Below are positions 9,233 to 52,921 of a stretch of DNA of 64,000 nt, piece after piece (positions within the stretch are counted from its first letter, which is position 1; each line of letters begins with the position of its first letter). The notes under the pieces were generated by a model, which worked only from the letters and a program-made list of their open reading frames with translations, did not search any database and was not told the DNA's origin. Made by a program: the position numbers and the translations under genes. This stretch comes from Patescibacteria group bacterium (lineage in GTDB: Bacteria > Patescibacteriota > Patescibacteriia > UBA9570 > JAHJKD01), in the NCBI GenBank assembly GCA_018822435.1, contig JAHJKD010000050.1, forward strand, positions 1,531-65,530, given 5' to 3'.

Positions 9233-10603
9233 ATGACTTTTCGGAGGATCAAATGGTTCAGTATAGGCACCCTTATCGGGTCCCTTTTAGTACTGGCCCT
9301 ATCCATTCCTGTTTTAGCACAGGATAACACCAACGAAGAACCCTTAATTTCGCCTGATACGGAAACAGTATCAACTGATGCTACTGCTACCACTACTGAT
9401 GGTTCAGATGCAGTCGAAGAAGTGCCCGAAATCGTACCTATTAGCGCCGAACTTGGAAACGAAACCGTAACTGACATTGATTCTGATGTAGAAGAAACTG
9501 AAGTGCTCGGGACAACTACCTTTAAAACTGGTGAGACGGTAAACGTAACTGGCACTTATGATAATGATGTCATTGTCGCCGGAAACAACATAACTATTGA
9601 TGCTGTTGTTGATGGTGATGTTCTTGCCATGGGCGGAACAGTCACGATTCGGGGCCGCGTTGAAGGCAATATTCGCGTGATGGGTGGAACTGTAAATATT
9701 GAGGGTGAAGTAGCCAAAAATGCAACTGTCTCTGGCGGTTGGATCAATGTGGCTAACACTGCCAAAATAGGAAAAGATGCCATGTTCTGGGGCGGAACTG
9801 TAAATATTGACGGTGAAATCACTGGCAGCTTATTTGGCGGAGCCGGAACAGTTACTTTAGACGGAATTATTGGAGGAAATGTTGATGTTGAAGTTGGTTC
9901 TTTGAATGTTGGCAGTAAAGCCAATGTCACCGGCGACTTAAAATATAACGCTGGCCAAGATGCTTCCATTAGTTCCTCTGCGACAATCAACGGTGAAACA
10001 ATAAAAGTGGATCCAGCCACTGCCACTGATGATGCTGATACTGTAAAAAAAGATGACTCTAATTTAAGCAAGCAAATCGGCTGGAAACTTGTCTGGTGGG
10101 TTAGCAATCTGCTTCTCGGCTTGCTTCTAATTTACGCTTTCCCGAAATGCGTCAAAGGCACAGGCAAAGCTATGTTTGCAAAGGCCGGTCATTCTTTCCT
10201 CTGGGGCTTGCTTGTCTTATTTGTCACTCCGATCGTCCTACTAATTCTAATGGTTACAGTTATTGGCATTCCAATTAGTATAATCGGCTTTATCGCTTAC
10301 GGCATCGGCATTTATCTGGCCTCTATTGTTTTAGGCATCGCTCTAGGTAACAAGATTTTGCCAAAAATGGAAAATCCAATCCTCCCTATGGTTATTGGTG
10401 TAACTATTATCTATATTCTTGGCTTAATACCCTTCCTAGGTGGATTAGTCGGCTTTGTGGCTGCTCTCTGGGTACTTGGCGCTTGGATGGTTTATATTAA
10501 ACAAAAAAAAGAAGCCCAGAAAGAAATGAAGATGGAAGAGAAAGAAGAAAAAAAGCCTGCCAAGAAAATTTCTAAAAAAACAGACGCTAAAAAGAAGAAA
10601 TAA
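9233..10603 (+). CDS. Membrane-anchored protein with bactofilin-like (polymer-forming, beta-helical) repeats
   Basis: 456-aa ORF. N-terminal signal/anchor, then repeated G(D/N)V...V.I.G.V.G units, four C-terminal TM helices and a Lys-rich tail. Confidence 0.65.
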   Translation: MTFRRIKWFSIGTLIGSLLVLALSIPVLAQDNTNEEPLISPDTETVSTDATATTTDGSDAVEEVPEIVPISAELGNETVTDIDSDVEETEVLGTTTFKTGETVNVTGTYDNDVIVAGNNITIDAVVDGDVLAMGGTVTIRGRVEGNIRVMGGTVNIEGEVAKNATVSGGWINVANTAKIGKDAMFWGGTVNIDGEITGSLFGGAGTVTLDGIIGGNVDVEVGSLNVGSKANVTGDLKYNAGQDASISSSATINGETIKVDPATATDDADTVKKDDSNLSKQIGWKLVWWVSNLLLGLLLIYAFPKCVKGTGKAMFAKAGHSFLWGLLVLFVTPIVLLILMVTVIGIPISIIGFIAYGIGIYLASIVLGIALGNKILPKMENPILPMVIGVTIIYILGLIPFLGGLVGFVAALWVLGAWMVYIKQKKEAQKEMKMEEKEEKKPAKKISKKTDAKKKK

Positions 10604-13469: not shown

Positions 13470-14203
13470 TAGGAATCTTTGACTCCGGTTTAGGAGGATT
13501 AGGAATTTTCAAAAAAATCAAAGCCATGCTTCCGGATGAGGATATTTATTATTATGGCGATACCGCTAATATCCCTTATGGTGAAAAATCTCCAGACGAA
13601 TTAAAAGGCCTGATTACTGCTGGCTTAAAATATTTAGAAAAAAAAGGCGTGAATATTATTGTAATTGCCTGTAACACGGCTTCTGTTTTGGATACTACTT
13701 ATTTTCGCCGCCAAGTTAAAATTCCAGTTGTTGCGGTCGTACCGGTTATAAAAACTGCTTCCAATCAGTCAAGAAATAATAAGATCGCCTTGCTGTCCAC
13801 TAAAGCCACCGCCATAAGCCCTTACACGGATTACCTTATAGAAGAATTCGCCCCAGAAGCCGAGGTCAAAAAAATTGCCTGCTCTGGCTGGGTTGAAGCG
13901 ATTGAAAAAGGCAAGGTCTCTGACCACCGTTTAAATTCTTGCCTAAAAAAGGTCGATGAAGAAGACGTTGTCGTGCTCGGTTGCACCCACTACACTCTTA
14001 TCAAAGGCGATATCCAAAGATTGCTCGGTCCCAATAAAATCCTCCTTGATTCCAATGAAGCTGTCGCCCGCCAAGTTCTTCGTGTCATGAACAAAGAAAA
14101 ACTTTACCAACATATAAAAAAGCCGAGATATATTTTCGACGCTTCCGGACATAAGAAAAAATTCCAGAAAATGGTTGATAGGTATTTAGAGGAGATAGCA
14201 TAA
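13466..14203 (+). CDS. murI: Glutamate racemase
   Basis: 245-aa ORF with IGIFDSGLGGL, IACNTAS and LGCTHY motifs. Confidence 0.92.
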   Translation: MIGIFDSGLGGLGIFKKIKAMLPDEDIYYYGDTANIPYGEKSPDELKGLITAGLKYLEKKGVNIIVIACNTASVLDTTYFRRQVKIPVVAVVPVIKTASNQSRNNKIALLSTKATAISPYTDYLIEEFAPEAEVKKIACSGWVEAIEKGKVSDHRLNSCLKKVDEEDVVVLGCTHYTLIKGDIQRLLGPNKILLDSNEAVARQVLRVMNKEKLYQHIKKPRYIFDASGHKKKFQKMVDRYLEEIA

Positions 14204-14287
14204 TTTCACGCCCCCAATAAATTGGTGGCCTGAAATTATATTATAGTATATTAGCCAAGCCCCGAATTTATTCGGGGTATTGGCTAA
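14202..14287. repeat. Double-hairpin intergenic repeat, copy A
   Basis: AATTTCAcgCCCCCAATAAATTGGtGG...CCAAGCCCCGAATTTATTCGGGGTATTGG. A second copy lies at 41058-41140. It sits between convergent murI and murD. Confidence 0.8.
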
Positions 14288-41057: not shown

Positions 41058-41140
41058 AATTTCAAACCCCCAATAAATTGGGAGCTTGAAATTAAATAAT
41101 CGTAAACTCCAAGCCCCGAATTTATTCGGGGTATTGGAGT
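41058..41140. repeat. Double-hairpin intergenic repeat, copy B
   Basis: AATTTCAaaCCCCCAATAAATTGGgaG...CCAAGCCCCGAATTTATTCGGGGTATTGG. It is the partner of 14202-14287 and lies between divergent uvrC and uvrA. Confidence 0.8.
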
Positions 41141-44047: not shown

Positions 44048-44055
44048 CACCTCTC

Positions 44056-44095
44056 TGTAGTGTAGGGACAACCCTAGGGTTGTCCCTACACTACA
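44056..44095. repeat. Perfect 40-bp palindrome, GTAG-type (REP-like), copy 1
   Basis: TGTAGTGTAGGGACAACCCT|AGGGTTGTCCCTACACTACA. It shares its outer 15-bp arms with 56245-56285. Confidence 0.9.
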
Positions 44096-44106
44096 GGTAT
44101 TTCATA

Positions 44107-46465: not shown

Positions 46466-47281
46466 TTATGACAATTTCTTATTCTGAGGTTTTTTAAGAT
46501 AATTATTTTTAATTGAAATCTTTTTTCCCGTACGTTTCTCAATGTCCTTACGGGTAGATCCGGCTACTTCACCGCCTTCTTTAGCATCTTTTTTTAATGG
46601 TTTGAAAGATTTGGACTCTTTGTCTTGAGTTAATCTGGTTGTTGTCGCTTCACCCAGCATTGTCAGGATCAATTCCAAATCATCCATATGATCCCTTAGA
46701 TTCTCACGCTGTAAATTCTTAAACTTTTTATACTCCTCCGGCGACATGTCAAAAGTGGCCTTAGAAATTTCTGAAGTCAAAATGGCGTATTCCCTCGCTT
46801 GTTTTAGCCCTCTTTTACTCCACTCATCAGTCAGCTCTTCCCGCACAGCAATGCCCCTCATCCTCTTCTCAATCCAGGAGTCACTATATCCCTTGGCTTT
46901 ATATAGCGCCTTTGTCCTTTTTGTTGCCAATTCCGGATCTTCAATTTCTTTGATCCTTTCATAGCCAACTCTGGCTAGCCAACGCTTGAAAGGTTCGGCT
47001 TTAGGCGAAGGGATTGATTGGATAATACGAAATATCCCCTCTGTATTGGCGCAATTCATCTCTTGTTTGCCGCCTTTAGTGCCTATTTCAAGGGTGTGTA
47101 CAATTTGTACCCACCCCTTAGCTATTTCTGCGTCTCTCTGCTTCATCCGTTGTATATATTGTTTTGCGTCCCGAGAATCAATTAATGCTAAAACAACATC
47201 TTCAACAACAAACCACCATTCATTATCATGAATAGTCCTTCTCACTTTTTTCCCTTTAAAAATCGCAATTTTATTATTCAT
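46466..47281 (-). CDS. Bro-N domain / DinD-like (phage antirepressor-type) protein
   Basis: 271-aa ORF. IHDNEWWFVVEDVVLAL...NTEGIFRIIQSIPSPKAEPFKRWLA is characteristic of Bro-N/DinD proteins. Confidence 0.75.
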   Translation of the reverse strand: MNNKIAIFKGKKVRRTIHDNEWWFVVEDVVLALIDSRDAKQYIQRMKQRDAEIAKGWVQIVHTLEIGTKGGKQEMNCANTEGIFRIIQSIPSPKAEPFKRWLARVGYERIKEIEDPELATKRTKALYKAKGYSDSWIEKRMRGIAVREELTDEWSKRGLKQAREYAILTSEISKATFDMSPEEYKKFKNLQRENLRDHMDDLELILTMLGEATTTRLTQDKESKSFKPLKKDAKEGGEVAGSTRKDIEKRTGKKISIKNNYLKKPQNKKLS

Positions 47282-47637
47282 CTAATTTTATTTTAAATGA
47301 TTATATTAATTATAACAAAAATAAATAAAAACACCCGGATTTTTTTGGGTGTTCTGAATTTAACATATAAATTTTTATATCTCAAATTTAACACAAAATT
47401 TGAAATATGGCAAATCCTTATTTCAAGTAAAATTTAATTAACTATTATATAAAATAGACAAAATTTAAACTGCCACCGAGAACTTCCTTTGTGTATGACA
47501 GTCGCTGCTGTCGCTGAGGGAGGCGTGGACACCGTCATCAGGAAGATGATGTTCGGAAATGGGTTGTGGTGTCTCTGAGGGCAAGTACGGAGCAGACTTC
47601 TTCCTCCAGCTGGCGAAGAAGTAGAAAGGAGGAGGCC

Positions 47638-47736
47638 ATGTCTCATTCACGAGCCGGGCCAACAGACTCGCCAGCGGAGGCCTCAAGCCAAGAATCCCTG
47701 GTGAGTCTCCGTAAAATTATTACATTTTTAAAATAA
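47638..47736 (+). CDS. Candidate 32-aa peptide at the 3' end of a GC-rich segment
   Basis: AAAGGAGGAGG SD precedes the ATG at 47638. Translation is MSHSRAGPTDSPAEASSQESLVSLRKIITFLK, with the stop just before hairpin ACCCGA-ATATCA-TCGGGT plus a T-run. The competing minus-strand ORFs 47465..47686 and 47434..47646 lack any SD. Confidence 0.25.
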   Translation: MSHSRAGPTDSPAEASSQESLVSLRKIITFLK

Positions 47737-47774
47737 TAAAAACACCCGAATATCATCGGGTATTTTTATTGTTG

Positions 47775-47816
47775 GTTGCGGGGGGCGGATTCGAACCGCC
47801 GACCTGATGGTTATGA
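47775..47816 (-). repeat. Orphan copy of the 3' half of tRNA-Met (att-like direct repeat)
   Basis: 42/42 identity with 49829-49870 (GTTGCGGGGGGCGGATTCGAACCGCCGACCTGATGGTTATGA). It covers the tRNA 3' end up to the anticodon loop. Confidence 0.9.
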
Positions 47817-47994
47817 AGATTGGGACCCCTCATCAACCAATTTGGCTAACCTAAGTCATTTATAGCTGAGCTCAGCTAAAATTTACCCACCTATCATTTT
47901 CTCAAGCATTCCCAAACTTGATCAAATGTACTCAATCATCATCACTTCGTGGGCAACTGGTGGGCAACGCTTTTTAAGAAAGTAATTATTAATT

Positions 47995-48204
47995 ATGAAA
48001 ACCAATCACAATGAATCCAAGCCATTGGATGAATCTCTCTTAACCGTAAGCCAAGTTGCGAAGCTGTTGAATCTTTCCAAAACAACAATCTATCGTCTGG
48101 TTGAGACGCGACAAATTCCACACTACAGAATTTCCGGGTCTCTCCGCTTTTCACGGAAAGAGATAGAAGAATATTTAAGGCAAGAAAGCTACAGATCTCC
48201 CTAG
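47995..48204 (+). CDS. Excisionase/AlpA-type (MerR-superfamily) HTH DNA-binding protein
   Basis: 69-aa ORF. LLTVSQVAKLLNLSKTTIYRLVETRQIPHYRI...RFSRKEIEEYL matches the helix_turn_helix_17/Xis pattern. Confidence 0.75.
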   Translation: MKTNHNESKPLDESLLTVSQVAKLLNLSKTTIYRLVETRQIPHYRISGSLRFSRKEIEEYLRQESYRSP

Positions 48205-48296
48205 AACCCAATTTAGAAAATTTTTATATTTCCTGCCTACATTGACAAATAGCAAATCTTTCTTAAGATAAATGTACTTATTTTTAACACAATATT

Positions 48297-48839
48297 ATGA
48301 GTGTAAAATTTTTAAAGAGCTTTGATGATTATTGCGAAGAGCACACATCAAAGGAAGATGTAAACGAAGCAATTAAAAATCCAGATAAAGTGACCAGAGA
48401 AGATATGGGTAATCAGCAATCCCTGTTCTTTTTGAAACATTTCTCTGAAGGCGAAAATGAATATTACATTCTTGCCTGCGCTACCAAAAAGGAAGATGAA
48501 ACTAGTGTATATGCCGCTTTTTATCTGCCACCGGAATTTGATAGTCAACTATCTAAAATGGATGCAATAGATGTAATGGTGGCTGTGGCCGAGGCATTTG
48601 GTTTAGAGGCAACTAGCGGTTCAGCCAAATCTAAGTTTATTCATCATCAGACCTATTGGACTGACAACGATAATTCTATACCTTTTATAGAAGGATTTCA
48701 GCCAGGTGATAAAAAAATGATATGTCAAACGTGGTTTAAAAAAGAGCCCCACGGAAGCAAAGTTCGTATCGAAATTCATACTGCTTTTTGCATCAATATG
48801 GATATTTATTACGAATGGCTACATTCTATTAAAAGATAA
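48297..48839 (+). CDS. Hypothetical protein (180 aa)
   Basis: ORF with TTGACA-N17/18 promoter at about 48243. No family recognised. Confidence 0.55.
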   Translation: MSVKFLKSFDDYCEEHTSKEDVNEAIKNPDKVTREDMGNQQSLFFLKHFSEGENEYYILACATKKEDETSVYAAFYLPPEFDSQLSKMDAIDVMVAVAEAFGLEATSGSAKSKFIHHQTYWTDNDNSIPFIEGFQPGDKKMICQTWFKKEPHGSKVRIEIHTAFCINMDIYYEWLHSIKR

Positions 48840-48849
48840 GAATAAGAAC

Positions 48850-49701
48850 TCATGCTAAAATATATTTCTTTATATAAACATCTAACTCTATCCAATTAAC
48901 CAAGGGCCTATTAAATTTTTGTATAATTGGTTCGACTTCCTTCGCTATAATATTATTTTTAATCAAGAAATACATTTGTGAGAATTTTCCTCTGTTCTCA
49001 TTATCTTGTTCTTCCCAACTTATTATCACTCCAAGGATATTCTTGTTTGAAGATAAAAATAGCTGGACTGGTATAGACATCTCTGCCAAGCCTGGTTTTA
49101 GAATCCAGTGCTGAGGTACTCTAAGAAATATAATTCCTAAGTTTTCTTTTCGAATTTGTTCAGCTGCTTTCTCACAAGGTTTTACTATTGATTCTTCAGA
49201 ATAGGGGGTAGTTTCAGATTTATTTTTTACCTCACATCGTATTTCAGGAGTAGTCTTTAAAAGTATATCAAAATTTTTATCTTTATCCTTATCTTTATCA
49301 GCGATAACAAACTCAAATGGTAAATTTCTTCTGAAGAAATGAGCACCACCACCCAATTCAGCAAATCGCGAAGTTAGATTTCCTCTTTTTATATGCTTAA
49401 CAACAGAGTCTATCCCCTCAACATGCTGCATGTTGTAAACCATTTCAGCTAAATCAGTAACCCGATTTTGATGGACAAATCCCATTTTCTTTGTGAGTAG
49501 AAACACCCTAGCTTCTTCTGTTTGTTGTGGATGCCGGCTATGTTGCATAAAAAGCGTTTGATTGGCCCATTCGTTTCTTATCATTCTTCTTATCAATTCT
49601 ATTGAGACGGCGCTCCTATAGAAATCAAACTTTTCTTTTGGGAGCTTGTTTTTTATTGTTTGGCATAATTTTTTTATTTCTGCCTCACTGACTTTTTCCA
49701 T
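48850..49701 (-). CDS. Hypothetical protein with a possible PD-(D/E)XK nuclease motif
   Basis: 283-aa ORF. NFDILLKTTPEIRCEVKNK fits D-x(n)-E-x-K. The call is tentative. Confidence 0.5.
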   Translation of the reverse strand: MEKVSEAEIKKLCQTIKNKLPKEKFDFYRSAVSIELIRRMIRNEWANQTLFMQHSRHPQQTEEARVFLLTKKMGFVHQNRVTDLAEMVYNMQHVEGIDSVVKHIKRGNLTSRFAELGGGAHFFRRNLPFEFVIADKDKDKDKNFDILLKTTPEIRCEVKNKSETTPYSEESIVKPCEKAAEQIRKENLGIIFLRVPQHWILKPGLAEMSIPVQLFLSSNKNILGVIISWEEQDNENRGKFSQMYFLIKNNIIAKEVEPIIQKFNRPLVNWIELDVYIKKYILA

Positions 49702-49829
49702 ATGTTTCTTATTAATAATTACCCACTACTTATTTTATCATGTTCAATTACAATAATAACAACATAATATAATTGTAGTTTTTAGGTGTGATTTGATTTA
49801 ATCAGTAAACACCGATGAGGGACTTCTTG

Positions 49830-49901
49830 TTGCGGGGGGCGGATTCGAACCGCCGACCTGATGGTTATGAGCCACCCGAGCTGCCACTGCTCCACCCCGC
49901 G
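49830..49901 (-). tRNA. tRNA-Met (anticodon CAT), initiator-like
   Basis: Minus-strand sequence CGCGGGGTGGAGCAGTGGCAGCTCGGGTGGCTCATAACCATCAGGTCGGCGGTTCGAATCCGCCCCCCGCAA. A C1:A72 mismatch and the CGCGGGG acceptor match bacterial tRNA-fMet. CCA is not encoded. TTGACA-N17-TAATAT promoter at about 49958-49986. Confidence 0.88.
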
Positions 49902-52214: not shown

Positions 52215-52428
52215 GATCACGAAAATTCGAAAAAACGAATTTCTCGAAGGTATTAACTTCATTTATATTGTAATGGCTGATGACTATTTTGTTGGGAATT
52301 TATATTACAGAAATCTTTTCGGCTTATTAAATAATTTCACTTTAAAATTAGTCCAAAGGCGCTTATTAATTTATAAGAGTAATTACCTTCGAGTTTTTCG
52401 TAACTTCATGCTTTCGTGATCCAAATTT
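52204..52428. mobile_element. MITE-like element, copy 1
   Basis: ATAGTAATTAGGATCACGAAAATTCGAAAAAACGAATTTCTCGAAGGTA...TACCTTCGAG...TTTCGTGATCCAAAT. It has imperfect terminal inverted repeats of about 44 bp (about 31/44 paired by my count) and no ORF. Confidence 0.7.
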
Positions 52429-52526
52429 CCCCTAAACGAAATAGAGCCCGTGACATGCACAGAATAGCGTCATAAAATTCACGATAATTTCAGAATAAAT
52501 AATTTGCTTATTTTCTCTGAAACGAT

Positions 52527-52563
52527 GGGATGAAAGACGGACGCTGGGTCCGTCTTTCATCCC
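52527..52563 (-). terminator. 16-bp perfect GC hairpin downstream of 52592..52888
   Basis: GGGATGAAAGACGGAC-GCTGG-GTCCGTCTTTCATCCC. Confidence 0.55.
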
Positions 52564-52591
52564 AAACAGGAAACCGCTCTTCCGGCAAGCG

Positions 52592-52888
52592 TCAGAGCCT
52601 CTCGATGATCCCGCCGGGTCCATGGGGGCCGTAGCCGTGGCCGTCCAATGACCCGATCAAGGCCCGCAGCCTGTCCGCCTTCGCGACTTTGCTGCGGACA
52701 ATGCTCATGATCCCTTCCCAGACGGCCTGGCGCTCGTCGTCTTCCAGAGCCATGAAAACTTCATAACTGCGGGCAGTGAAGCTTTCATCCGCCATCAGGG
52801 AAACCGGATCATCAGAACTGGAATCAATTGACTCACACACCTGCTCGAAAAAACTCGCCAAAATCTCACGATTATCAGATTTAGCCAA
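52592..52888 (-). CDS. Hypothetical acidic 98-aa protein; GC-rich island gene
   Basis: TTG start with SD AAGGAGG 8 nt upstream. GC-ending codons. No family recognised. Confidence 0.55.
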   Translation of the reverse strand: MAKSDNREILASFFEQVCESIDSSSDDPVSLMADESFTARSYEVFMALEDDERQAVWEGIMSIVRSKVAKADRLRALIGSLDGHGYGPHGPGGIIERL

Positions 52889-52921
52889 TTAGGTTGCCTC
52901 CTTTCTTCCTGTTGAAGACTT

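Follow-up and report, generated by a model that had tools for sequence, protein, structure and literature searches.

Phage satellites, among them P4-like elements, phage-inducible chromosomal islands (PICIs) and PICI-like elements (PLEs), are usually several kb or more in length and carry their own integrase together with replication and helper-hijacking genes. Integrative mobile elements exploiting Xer (IMEXs) are integrase-less and use the host XerC/D recombinases at dif. Here we describe a 2-kb islet in a 64-kb window of Patescibacteria DNA (the window being the whole stretch that was analysed; positions refer to it). The islet lies between an initiator-type tRNA-Met gene and a displaced copy of the 3' half of that gene, and it carries an excisionase-like (xis-like) gene, a gene for a nuclease-like protein of 283 aa and a gene for a 180-aa partner protein. 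From the evidence given below, the islet is probably an integrative element in miniature. It would rely on an integrase acting in trans, would be similar to a cis-mobilizable element (CIME) or a satellite, and would have the nuclease-partner pair as its cargo. Little is known of the mobile elements and defence systems of Patescibacteria, and standard island finders discard integrase-less islands at tRNA genes.

For islands at tRNA genes, a rule of regenerated target plus displaced fragment and an anticodon-centred attP class have been described with Islander (PMC4383910). The islet resembles Islander class A in its intact tRNA gene, its displaced 3' fragment in the same orientation, the identity that runs from the anticodon loop to the 3' end and its foreign composition, and the sublocation of the repeat (start in the anticodon loop, 3' part of the gene) is that of this class, the other known sublocations being the T loop and the T/acceptor junction. 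It differs from Islander islands in being only 2 kb long and in having no integrase, by which it would fail the Islander integrase filter (PMC4383910). The islet is also like the CIMEs of the Streptococcus ICESt1/3 family of ICEs (integrative and conjugative elements) in that it keeps attL and attR without integration and transfer genes (PMC5704250). CIMEs can in principle be moved by the integrase of a related element, and tandem arrays that share att cores are typical of them (PMC5704250). The parts of the target gene are arranged as follows.

49829-49901, minus strand: initiator-type tRNA-Met(CAT) gene, intact, found by ARAGORN and by Rfam (RF00005, tRNA, 59.2 bits); positions 33-74 element-supplied
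49829-49870, minus strand: core copy within the tRNA gene (attL side), followed by AAG, with CCA not encoded, and then by element DNA
47775-47816, minus strand: orphan core copy (attR side), continuing with C-A, native CCA encoded; this is the 3' part that the tRNA gene had originally, now displaced
47730-47774, minus strand: native terminator belonging to the tRNA gene, from which it is now separated by 2 kb; it consists of a hairpin (47744-47761) and a T-run

The two core copies form a direct repeat in which 42 of 42 positions are identical, as the first-pass annotation of this DNA had stated, and the repeat corresponds to positions 33-74 of the tRNA, that is from U33 in the anticodon loop to C74. 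A 24-mer of the repeat was found in the window at just these two places even when up to 3 mismatches were allowed, with 0 occurrences expected by chance. Both copies lie in the minus-strand sense of the tRNA. The acceptor stem (CGCGGGG/CCCCGCA) has a C1xA72 mismatch, which is a trait of bacterial initiator tRNAs, and the anticodon is CAU. In the anticodon stem the pairs 30:40 and 31:39 are G:C and 29:41 is U:A, which gives two of the three canonical G:C pairs (29-31/39-41); 'initiator-like', as the gene had been called, is a fair label.

On the tRNA strand, a hairpin and T-run begin four nt past the encoded CCA of the orphan copy. The copy within the gene runs past A-A-G into AT-rich DNA, and a terminator scan found no terminator-like site between the tRNA and the nuclease-like gene. 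Because the orphan copy keeps the native CCA and the terminator, it is the displaced host 3' fragment, and the present 3' part of the gene is the one that the element supplied. The GC content of the islet is 0.31-0.38, whereas that of the flanks is 0.40-0.45. Judged by this anatomy, the islet is a real integration of the anticodon-loop type, and the earlier proposal of site-specific integration holds: the orphan copy has the encoded CCA and the terminator hairpin, and the copy in the tRNA gene is followed by element DNA. The islet extends over 47817-49828 plus one core copy. It would have entered the initiator tRNA gene by site-specific recombination, probably of the tyrosine-integrase type, through an attachment site of its own consisting of a 42-43-nt tRNA copy from the anticodon loop to C74. 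A crossover near the anticodon loop would then have joined the host 5' part to the element 3' part, so restoring the gene, and would have displaced the host's own 3' part, with its CCA and terminator, by 2 kb.

Two further observations concern these junctions. The left arm of the element (see below) holds, at 49745-49785, a degenerate copy of the host terminator region 47730-47770 (z=4.5; 4 of 1000 shuffles), which suggests that the tRNA-like segment of the element may once have been captured along with downstream host sequence. A third, degenerate tRNA fragment to the left of the orphan copy, which would have indicated tandem decay including the Bro-N gene there, was sought, and none above chance was found.

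A reading without a mobile element, in which the assembly produced the arrangement as an artefact or the 3' half of the tRNA was duplicated locally, is effectively refuted. The same structure is present in two independent assemblies of metagenome-assembled genomes (MAGs), with 3 mismatches across 12.4 kb and the islet itself identical, and Logan contigs and unitigs of other runs are compatible with it. The native CCA and terminator that go with the orphan copy, the foreign composition and a homologous element on another contig (see below) all speak against an artefact. Database entries of the islet proteins have the locus tags KKC88_04580/85 on contig JAHIYR010000040.1 (Patescibacteria group bacterium), and look-ups of the exact proteins turned up only occupied sites and contigs that break off at the repeat. 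The Logan contigs break 30 nt into the repeat; they are uninformative about circles and empty sites because their k of 31 is less than 42. One of them (L013, run SRR27458548) begins at 49877, 7 nt past the end of the repeat and not 30 nt inside it as predicted by k=31, and a variant at 49876 in that sample may be the reason.

Three open reading frames (ORFs) lie in the islet, and all three are intact.

47995-48204, plus strand: excisionase-family HTH_17 protein of 69 aa (xis-like; Pfam, 8.6e-18; TIGR01764 'excise', 3.6e-15; phrog_66)
48297-48839, plus strand: partner protein of 180 aa, encoded convergently to the nuclease-like gene, with 10 nt between the two
48850-49701, minus strand: 283-aa PD-(D/E)xK-like protein, 127 nt downstream of the tRNA gene and on the same strand

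The reading of the first ORF as an Xis/AlpA-type helix-turn-helix (HTH) protein is confirmed: it scores 64.8 bits with PF12728 (cutoff 27) and 56.1 bits with TIGR01764 (cutoff 28.8). It also matches the HTH model of MADS MAD1, below the cutoff of that model. Domain searches of the three ORFs gave no match to an integrase or another recombinase, and no relaxase, transfer, replication or helper-interference gene was found in the islet; the excisionase-like gene is retained. No integrase domain was found elsewhere in the 64-kb window (precomputed Pfam annotation of 1-59700, and the window tail), so that the absence of an integrase noted earlier for the islet extends to the whole window. In viral contigs no match was found for the nuclease-like family, the core, an attP junction, the 180-aa protein or the sequence box described below; matches of the xis-like protein there turned out to be generic HTH_17 proteins and were rejected.

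Set beside the satellites, the islet is likewise small and possibly helper-dependent, has an HTH protein of the AlpA/Xis type and possibly carries defensive cargo. It is unlike them in having 2 kb and none of the integrase, replication and hijacking genes, and in having no relative in viral contigs, and by the criteria for satellites it is not one. With the IMEXs it shares integration without an element-encoded recombinase, a tyrosine recombinase probably acting in trans here too; it differs in that its target is a tRNA gene and not dif, and in that it carries two things dispensable for IMEXs, an excisionase-like gene and long arms.

A second copy of the element was found, through a context look-up of one homologue of the 283-aa protein (P0007), on a metagenome contig of 4.5x coverage, here called L055. 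The order left arm, nuclease homologue, convergent partner, xis is the same there as in the window. The xis homologue of L055 is truncated by the contig end; 35 of its 42 aa are identical, with a proportion of synonymous differences (pS) of 0.83, which is saturated, and of nonsynonymous differences (pN) of 0.10. Since synonymous sites are saturated while pN is 0.10, xis has been under purifying selection. The core ahead of the left arm of L055 consists of tRNA positions 32-74 and is identical over 43 nt, and the right arm before that core is 83% identical over 191 nt to the right arm in the window. The junction of right arm, core and left arm is the product expected of recombination at the core, and it would represent either attP or an internal junction of a tandem array of the kind reported for CIME/IME accretions (PMC5704250). 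At 1242-1439 lies a second unit of right arm and core (78% identical to the window), and after it stands a hairpin homologous to the native terminator of the window (z=12.8), so that this junction of right arm, core and terminator repeats the attR of the window. The sequence after this core (core 1) was also considered as a diverged left arm; the similarity was not significant, and the sequence matches the host terminator of the window instead. A third copy of the box lies upstream of an asparaginase gene. In L055 1-4457 the asparaginase gene lies between two box copies, and the 2.9 kb between the two units of right arm and core hold genes for a 70-aa protein and a 209-aa lipoprotein-like protein; this part may represent several mini-elements in tandem that differ in their cargo, or it may be host DNA.

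By these comparisons, the compact order left arm, nuclease, partner, xis is older than the split of the window and L055 copies. The arms, at about 80% identity, stand beside saturated synonymous sites and a cargo at about 34%, so the arms and xis are under functional constraint. In this the islet is unlike the CIMEs, which are seen as one-off decay products: here conservation covers xis, the arms and the gene order in two copies with saturated synonymous sites. CIMEs derive from an ICE or an integrative and mobilizable element (IME) and are mobilised through accretion with such an element; the islet also differs from them in that no parent ICE or IME was found and in its Patescibacteria host. 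The layout of L055 resembles a CIME/IME accretion array, a likeness that is suggestive only.

These data bear on another account, which we regard as rather unlikely, namely that the islet is the dead remnant of a larger phage or integrative element that had entered the tRNA gene and then lost its integrase and most of its genes, and that its features are inherited and not maintained. The lack of an integrase in islet and window would fit, and so would the identity of the islet in the two MAGs, where no variant state was seen; att-flanked relics of integrated elements are common (PMC5704250). Against this stand the three intact ORFs and the 42/42 repeat, and the compact order that recurs in L055 in spite of saturated synonymous sites, with purifying selection on xis and arms at about 80%. 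Patescibacteria genomes are small and streamlined, and they would be expected to shed useless DNA. The first-pass annotation had left open whether the islet is a decayed element or a satellite mobilised in trans. Because L055 has conserved xis and arms, the balance shifts toward a maintained, trans-dependent family over a one-off relic, and present mobility is not proven by this. Further movement would need an integrase from a helper element or from the chromosome, since none is encoded and xis and the two arms have been kept.

The arms carry several short motifs, some of which are shared with L055.

49702-49828: left arm (P'-type), from the core to the nuclease-like gene; 76-79% identical to L055 4501-4634
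47817-47994: right arm (P-type), from the orphan core to xis; 83% over 191 nt and 78% over 200 nt identical to the two L055 units
47939-47968, plus strand: box upstream of xis, TCATCACTTCGTGGGCAA (47939-47956) and then a second GTGGGCAAC (47960-47968)
47883-47890, minus strand: inverted GTGGGTAA motif in the right arm; in L055 GGGTAA alone is conserved
47863-47878: perfect 16-bp palindrome TAGCTGAGCTCAGCTA
47808-47839: inverted repeat across the anticodon-loop end of the core, with arms TGGTTATGAAG (47808-47818) and CCTCATCAACCA (47828-47839)

Two 9-bp repeats upstream of xis had been pointed out earlier. The two copies of GTGGGCAAC (47949-47957 and 47960-47968) are real and are the only exact ones in the window, with the correction that they are part of an invariant 18-nt box: TCATCACTTCGTGGGCAA, of which TTGCCCACGAAGTGATGA is the reverse complement, is unchanged in 4 of 4 copies from window and L055. 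The palindrome that had also been noted is real as well; its length is 16 bp and not 14 bp, and L055 does not conserve it. In tRNA orientation the inverted repeat across the anticodon-loop end of the core has the L055 form TGGTTGATGAGG / CCTCATAACCA; it is kept in all three units of right arm and core, with a spacer of 7-9 nt (helix columns 114-126 and 134-145 of the alignment). The motif GTGGGYAA has 4 of its 5 sites in the window within the 305 bp of the arms, where about 0.013 would be expected. The left arm contains a 17-mer, AAGTAGTGGGTAATTAT, at 49715-49731 on the minus strand, about 14 nt ahead of the nuclease start codon, and L055 has it without a change. The 12-mer GTAATTATTAAT is shared just upstream of the start codons of xis and of the nuclease gene. 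Two candidates were rejected. An 8-bp inverted repeat flanking the islet, CCCTCATC/GATGAGGG, does not retain its pairing in L055, and a consensus fold of arm plus core gave too little support for a structured RNA, with just 2 compensatory pairs among 3 sequences.

The boxes may have a role in recombination, in transcription control of xis and the nuclease gene, or in both. It is a tentative possibility, and one compatible with an element mobilised in trans, that the HTH protein mainly controls transcription of the cargo, as the C proteins of restriction-modification systems do, in which case the GTGGGCAAC box and the GTGGGTAATTAT 17-mer would be its operators and promoters and not arm sites for recombination. 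In favour of this, the motifs lie upstream of the two start codons, 27-46 nt from the ATG of xis and about 14-30 nt from that of the nuclease gene, and the occurrence of GTAATTATTAAT ahead of both start codons, the perfect conservation in L055 of the 17-mer upstream of the nuclease gene, the L055 box copy ahead of the unrelated asparaginase gene and the sub-cutoff match to the MADS MAD1 HTH model all point the same way. However, the protein matches the excisionase family domain, its gene adjoins an att arm, and conservation covers the whole arm of about 150 nt, beyond the box. Tandem direct repeats one helical turn apart, as found here, fit the binding of a directionality factor, of which they are typical (lambda Xis, TorI).

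The 283-aa and 180-aa proteins had first appeared to be orphans, as a word-indexed search returned self-matches only; this was overturned by a full HMMER scan and by the context in L055. The scan, over 1.84 billion representatives, gave relatives of the 283-aa protein in at least 664 clusters at E<=1e-3 and in 237 at E<=1e-10, mostly of 280-300 aa. In an alignment of 50 sequences, conservation reaches at least 90% at E115 (in AELE), D141, D145, E157, K159, K161, P184 and P196, and Q182 and W199 never vary. The order E...D...ExK...Q is the pattern of PD-(D/E)xK nucleases. The D...ExK motif of the first-pass annotation is therefore upheld by 50 members, but the protein is not a lone unknown: it belongs to a large uncharacterised family. 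This family had no match in Pfam, NCBIfam, PHROGs, PADLOC or PDB, longer members included. Among restriction endonuclease-like Pfam models, 2 of the 50 members had weak matches (AHJR-like and NOV_C, E about 0.04-0.05); an hhalign comparison of the family with the PDDEXK_3 protein of the window gave nothing, and a Foldseek search with a low-confidence model of the 283-aa protein gave noise only.

Homologues were found in Wolfebacteria, in Absconditicoccaceae, in a Woesearchaeota archaeon, in a Bacillota MAG and in assorted metagenomes, a patchy distribution over Patescibacteria (candidate phyla radiation, CPR), DPANN archaea and Bacillota. They are mostly single genes amid unrelated housekeeping genes, with no integrase nearby and no flanking repeats. 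Homologues in other contexts are these.

L004 635-5066: homologue 22 bp downstream of an MmeI-like restriction-modification gene
L005 38-1200: homologue overlapping an HsdS fragment by 4 bp
L052: homologue beside a terminase-like gene
L022: homologue near a group II intron reverse transcriptase
L007 9884-10846: homologue 44 nt after tRNA-Gln, same strand; a low-GC single-gene insert with no flanking repeat
L009 9237-10870: homologue after tRNA-Gln, same strand; the gap, originally of about 50 nt, has been enlarged by a 650-bp insertion
L029 48-1665: homologue 99 nt after tRNA-Phe, same strand; the ORF has an in-frame TGA

The insertion in L009 carries a 167-aa ORF, which is bracketed by an imperfect direct repeat of about 40 nt (9302-9345 and 9950-9993) made of the last 7 nt of tRNA-Gln plus downstream sequence.

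Of about 16 informative loci, 4 (the window, L007, L009 and L029) have a member of the family right behind a tRNA gene and on its strand, against about 3% expected per locus. Such enrichment is typical of island cargo, and the patchy family and its unrelated neighbours mark the cargo as apparently foreign. The same adjacency, together with the place of the 283-aa gene directly downstream of the tRNA gene, might suggest that the protein is itself the mobility enzyme, a nuclease or recombinase directed at tRNA genes and lying where an integrase usually lies. We consider this very improbable. Most homologues have no tRNA gene or flanking repeat nearby and stand singly among housekeeping genes, recombinase motifs are absent from the family, and a 42-nt duplication that restores the tRNA is the product of conservative site-specific recombination and not of nuclease homing.

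As to the 180-aa protein, described before as an unknown, the ORF stands, but it is not an unrelated protein: it is a conserved partner of the 283-aa protein. It had no family match in Pfam, PHROGs, PADLOC or NCBIfam. A 179-aa gene of L055 (5588-6127) aligns with it from end to end (33.5% identity, tblastn 6e-37, z=65) and is convergent, as in the window, with the nuclease homologue, which is 34% identical to the 283-aa protein. Because the same convergent pairing recurs in L055, the nuclease-like protein and the 180-aa protein form a conserved cassette. A similarity of the 180-aa protein to the N-terminus of the L029 ORF proved to be chance (z=0.9). A nuclease pair for defence or toxin-immunity is the most likely nature of the cargo, given its motif, the way in which the two genes are conserved together and the settings of the family in islands and beside restriction-modification genes; the earlier idea of a defence or addiction cargo is plausible on motif and context alone. 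We compared the pair with the PD-(D/E)xK nuclease superfamily and with restriction cassettes controlled by C proteins. The motif, a small HTH gene with upstream boxes and the two homologues next to restriction-modification genes are points of likeness. Unlike those cassettes, the islet has no methyltransferase, the family has no significant match to the profile of any known PD-(D/E)xK family and the partner has no known fold. Transcription from the tRNA promoter could run on into the nuclease-like gene, which also has a conserved 17-mer ahead of its own start codon.

Several points weigh against a maintained mini-element with a nuclease cargo. A profile search of PDB sequences for the 283-aa family gave 0 matches, which leaves the nuclease fold putative, and single-sequence AlphaFold models were unusable (predicted local distance difference test, pLDDT, of 36 for the 283-aa protein and 45). 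HTH_17 proteins also serve as plain regulators. Excised circle, empty site and helper integrase were not seen, the Logan contigs, which break at the repeat, being uninformative on this. The backbone is known from one further copy only, L055, the contig of which ends inside xis, with an integrase possible beyond; at 4.5x coverage, its junction of right arm, core and left arm could be a mis-join at a 44-nt repeat. Finally, the conservation of xis and arms could come from selection in integrase-bearing ancestors and not in the present mini-form. The analysis shows the integration anatomy, the lack of an integrase in 64 kb and the conservation of xis, arms and gene order in a second, diverged copy; the recombinase type, present-day mobility, dependence in trans and the function of the cargo are things that we infer. 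With these points counted in, a trans-integrase-dependent miniature element remains the explanation that we favour.

If it is right, integrase-less mini-elements may persist as a family in which the arms and the xis-like gene are selected, which would mean traffic dependent on helper integrases in tiny genomes. The nuclease-like family is of interest in itself, being unannotated, comprising at least 664 clusters, having a partner conserved in one subclade and tending to follow tRNA genes. A wider proposal, speculative and on the whole improbable, would be that cassettes of about 2 kb, integrase-less and xis-bearing, form a family at the initiator tRNA gene of Patescibacteria, possibly in arrays, moved by integrases in trans and delivering fast-evolving cargo, including a new two-gene nuclease-partner module for defence or addiction that is expressed from the tRNA promoter. 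Insertion would proceed via the conserved site of right arm and core, which would mimic the 3' part of the tRNA, and L055 would then be a tandem array with asparaginase, lipoprotein-like gene and nuclease pair as cargo.

Outside the islet, the Bro-N gene reported as a neighbour is present at 46466-47281 on the minus strand (PADLOC candidate defence family PDC-S13, 3e-107; phrog_15286, 2.7e-79), and no tRNA fragment marks a second island there. Between this gene and the orphan core, 47319-47772 comprises a GC-rich stretch (about 47434-47740, GC 0.45, in AT-rich surroundings) between similar terminator-type hairpins at 47319-47353 and 47730-47764 (77%). It folds better than shuffled sequences (z=-3.7, plus strand) and has no Rfam match and no annotated gene. 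Of the two hairpins, the outer one has 90% identity with that following core 1 in L055. A second GC-rich island (about 0.5) at 52400-52900 holds an annotated 98-aa ORF without a family, and a perfect hairpin with 17-nt arms adjoins it at 52526-52564. An intergenic repeat of 82 nt with 85% identity is found, inverted, at 41058-41137 (between uvrC and uvrA) and at 14202-14283. In the gap between uvrA and the next ORF, at 44055-44096, lies a perfect palindrome of 42 bp (21+21 nt without a spacer); no other palindrome in the window comes near its length, and a Logan contig ends within it.

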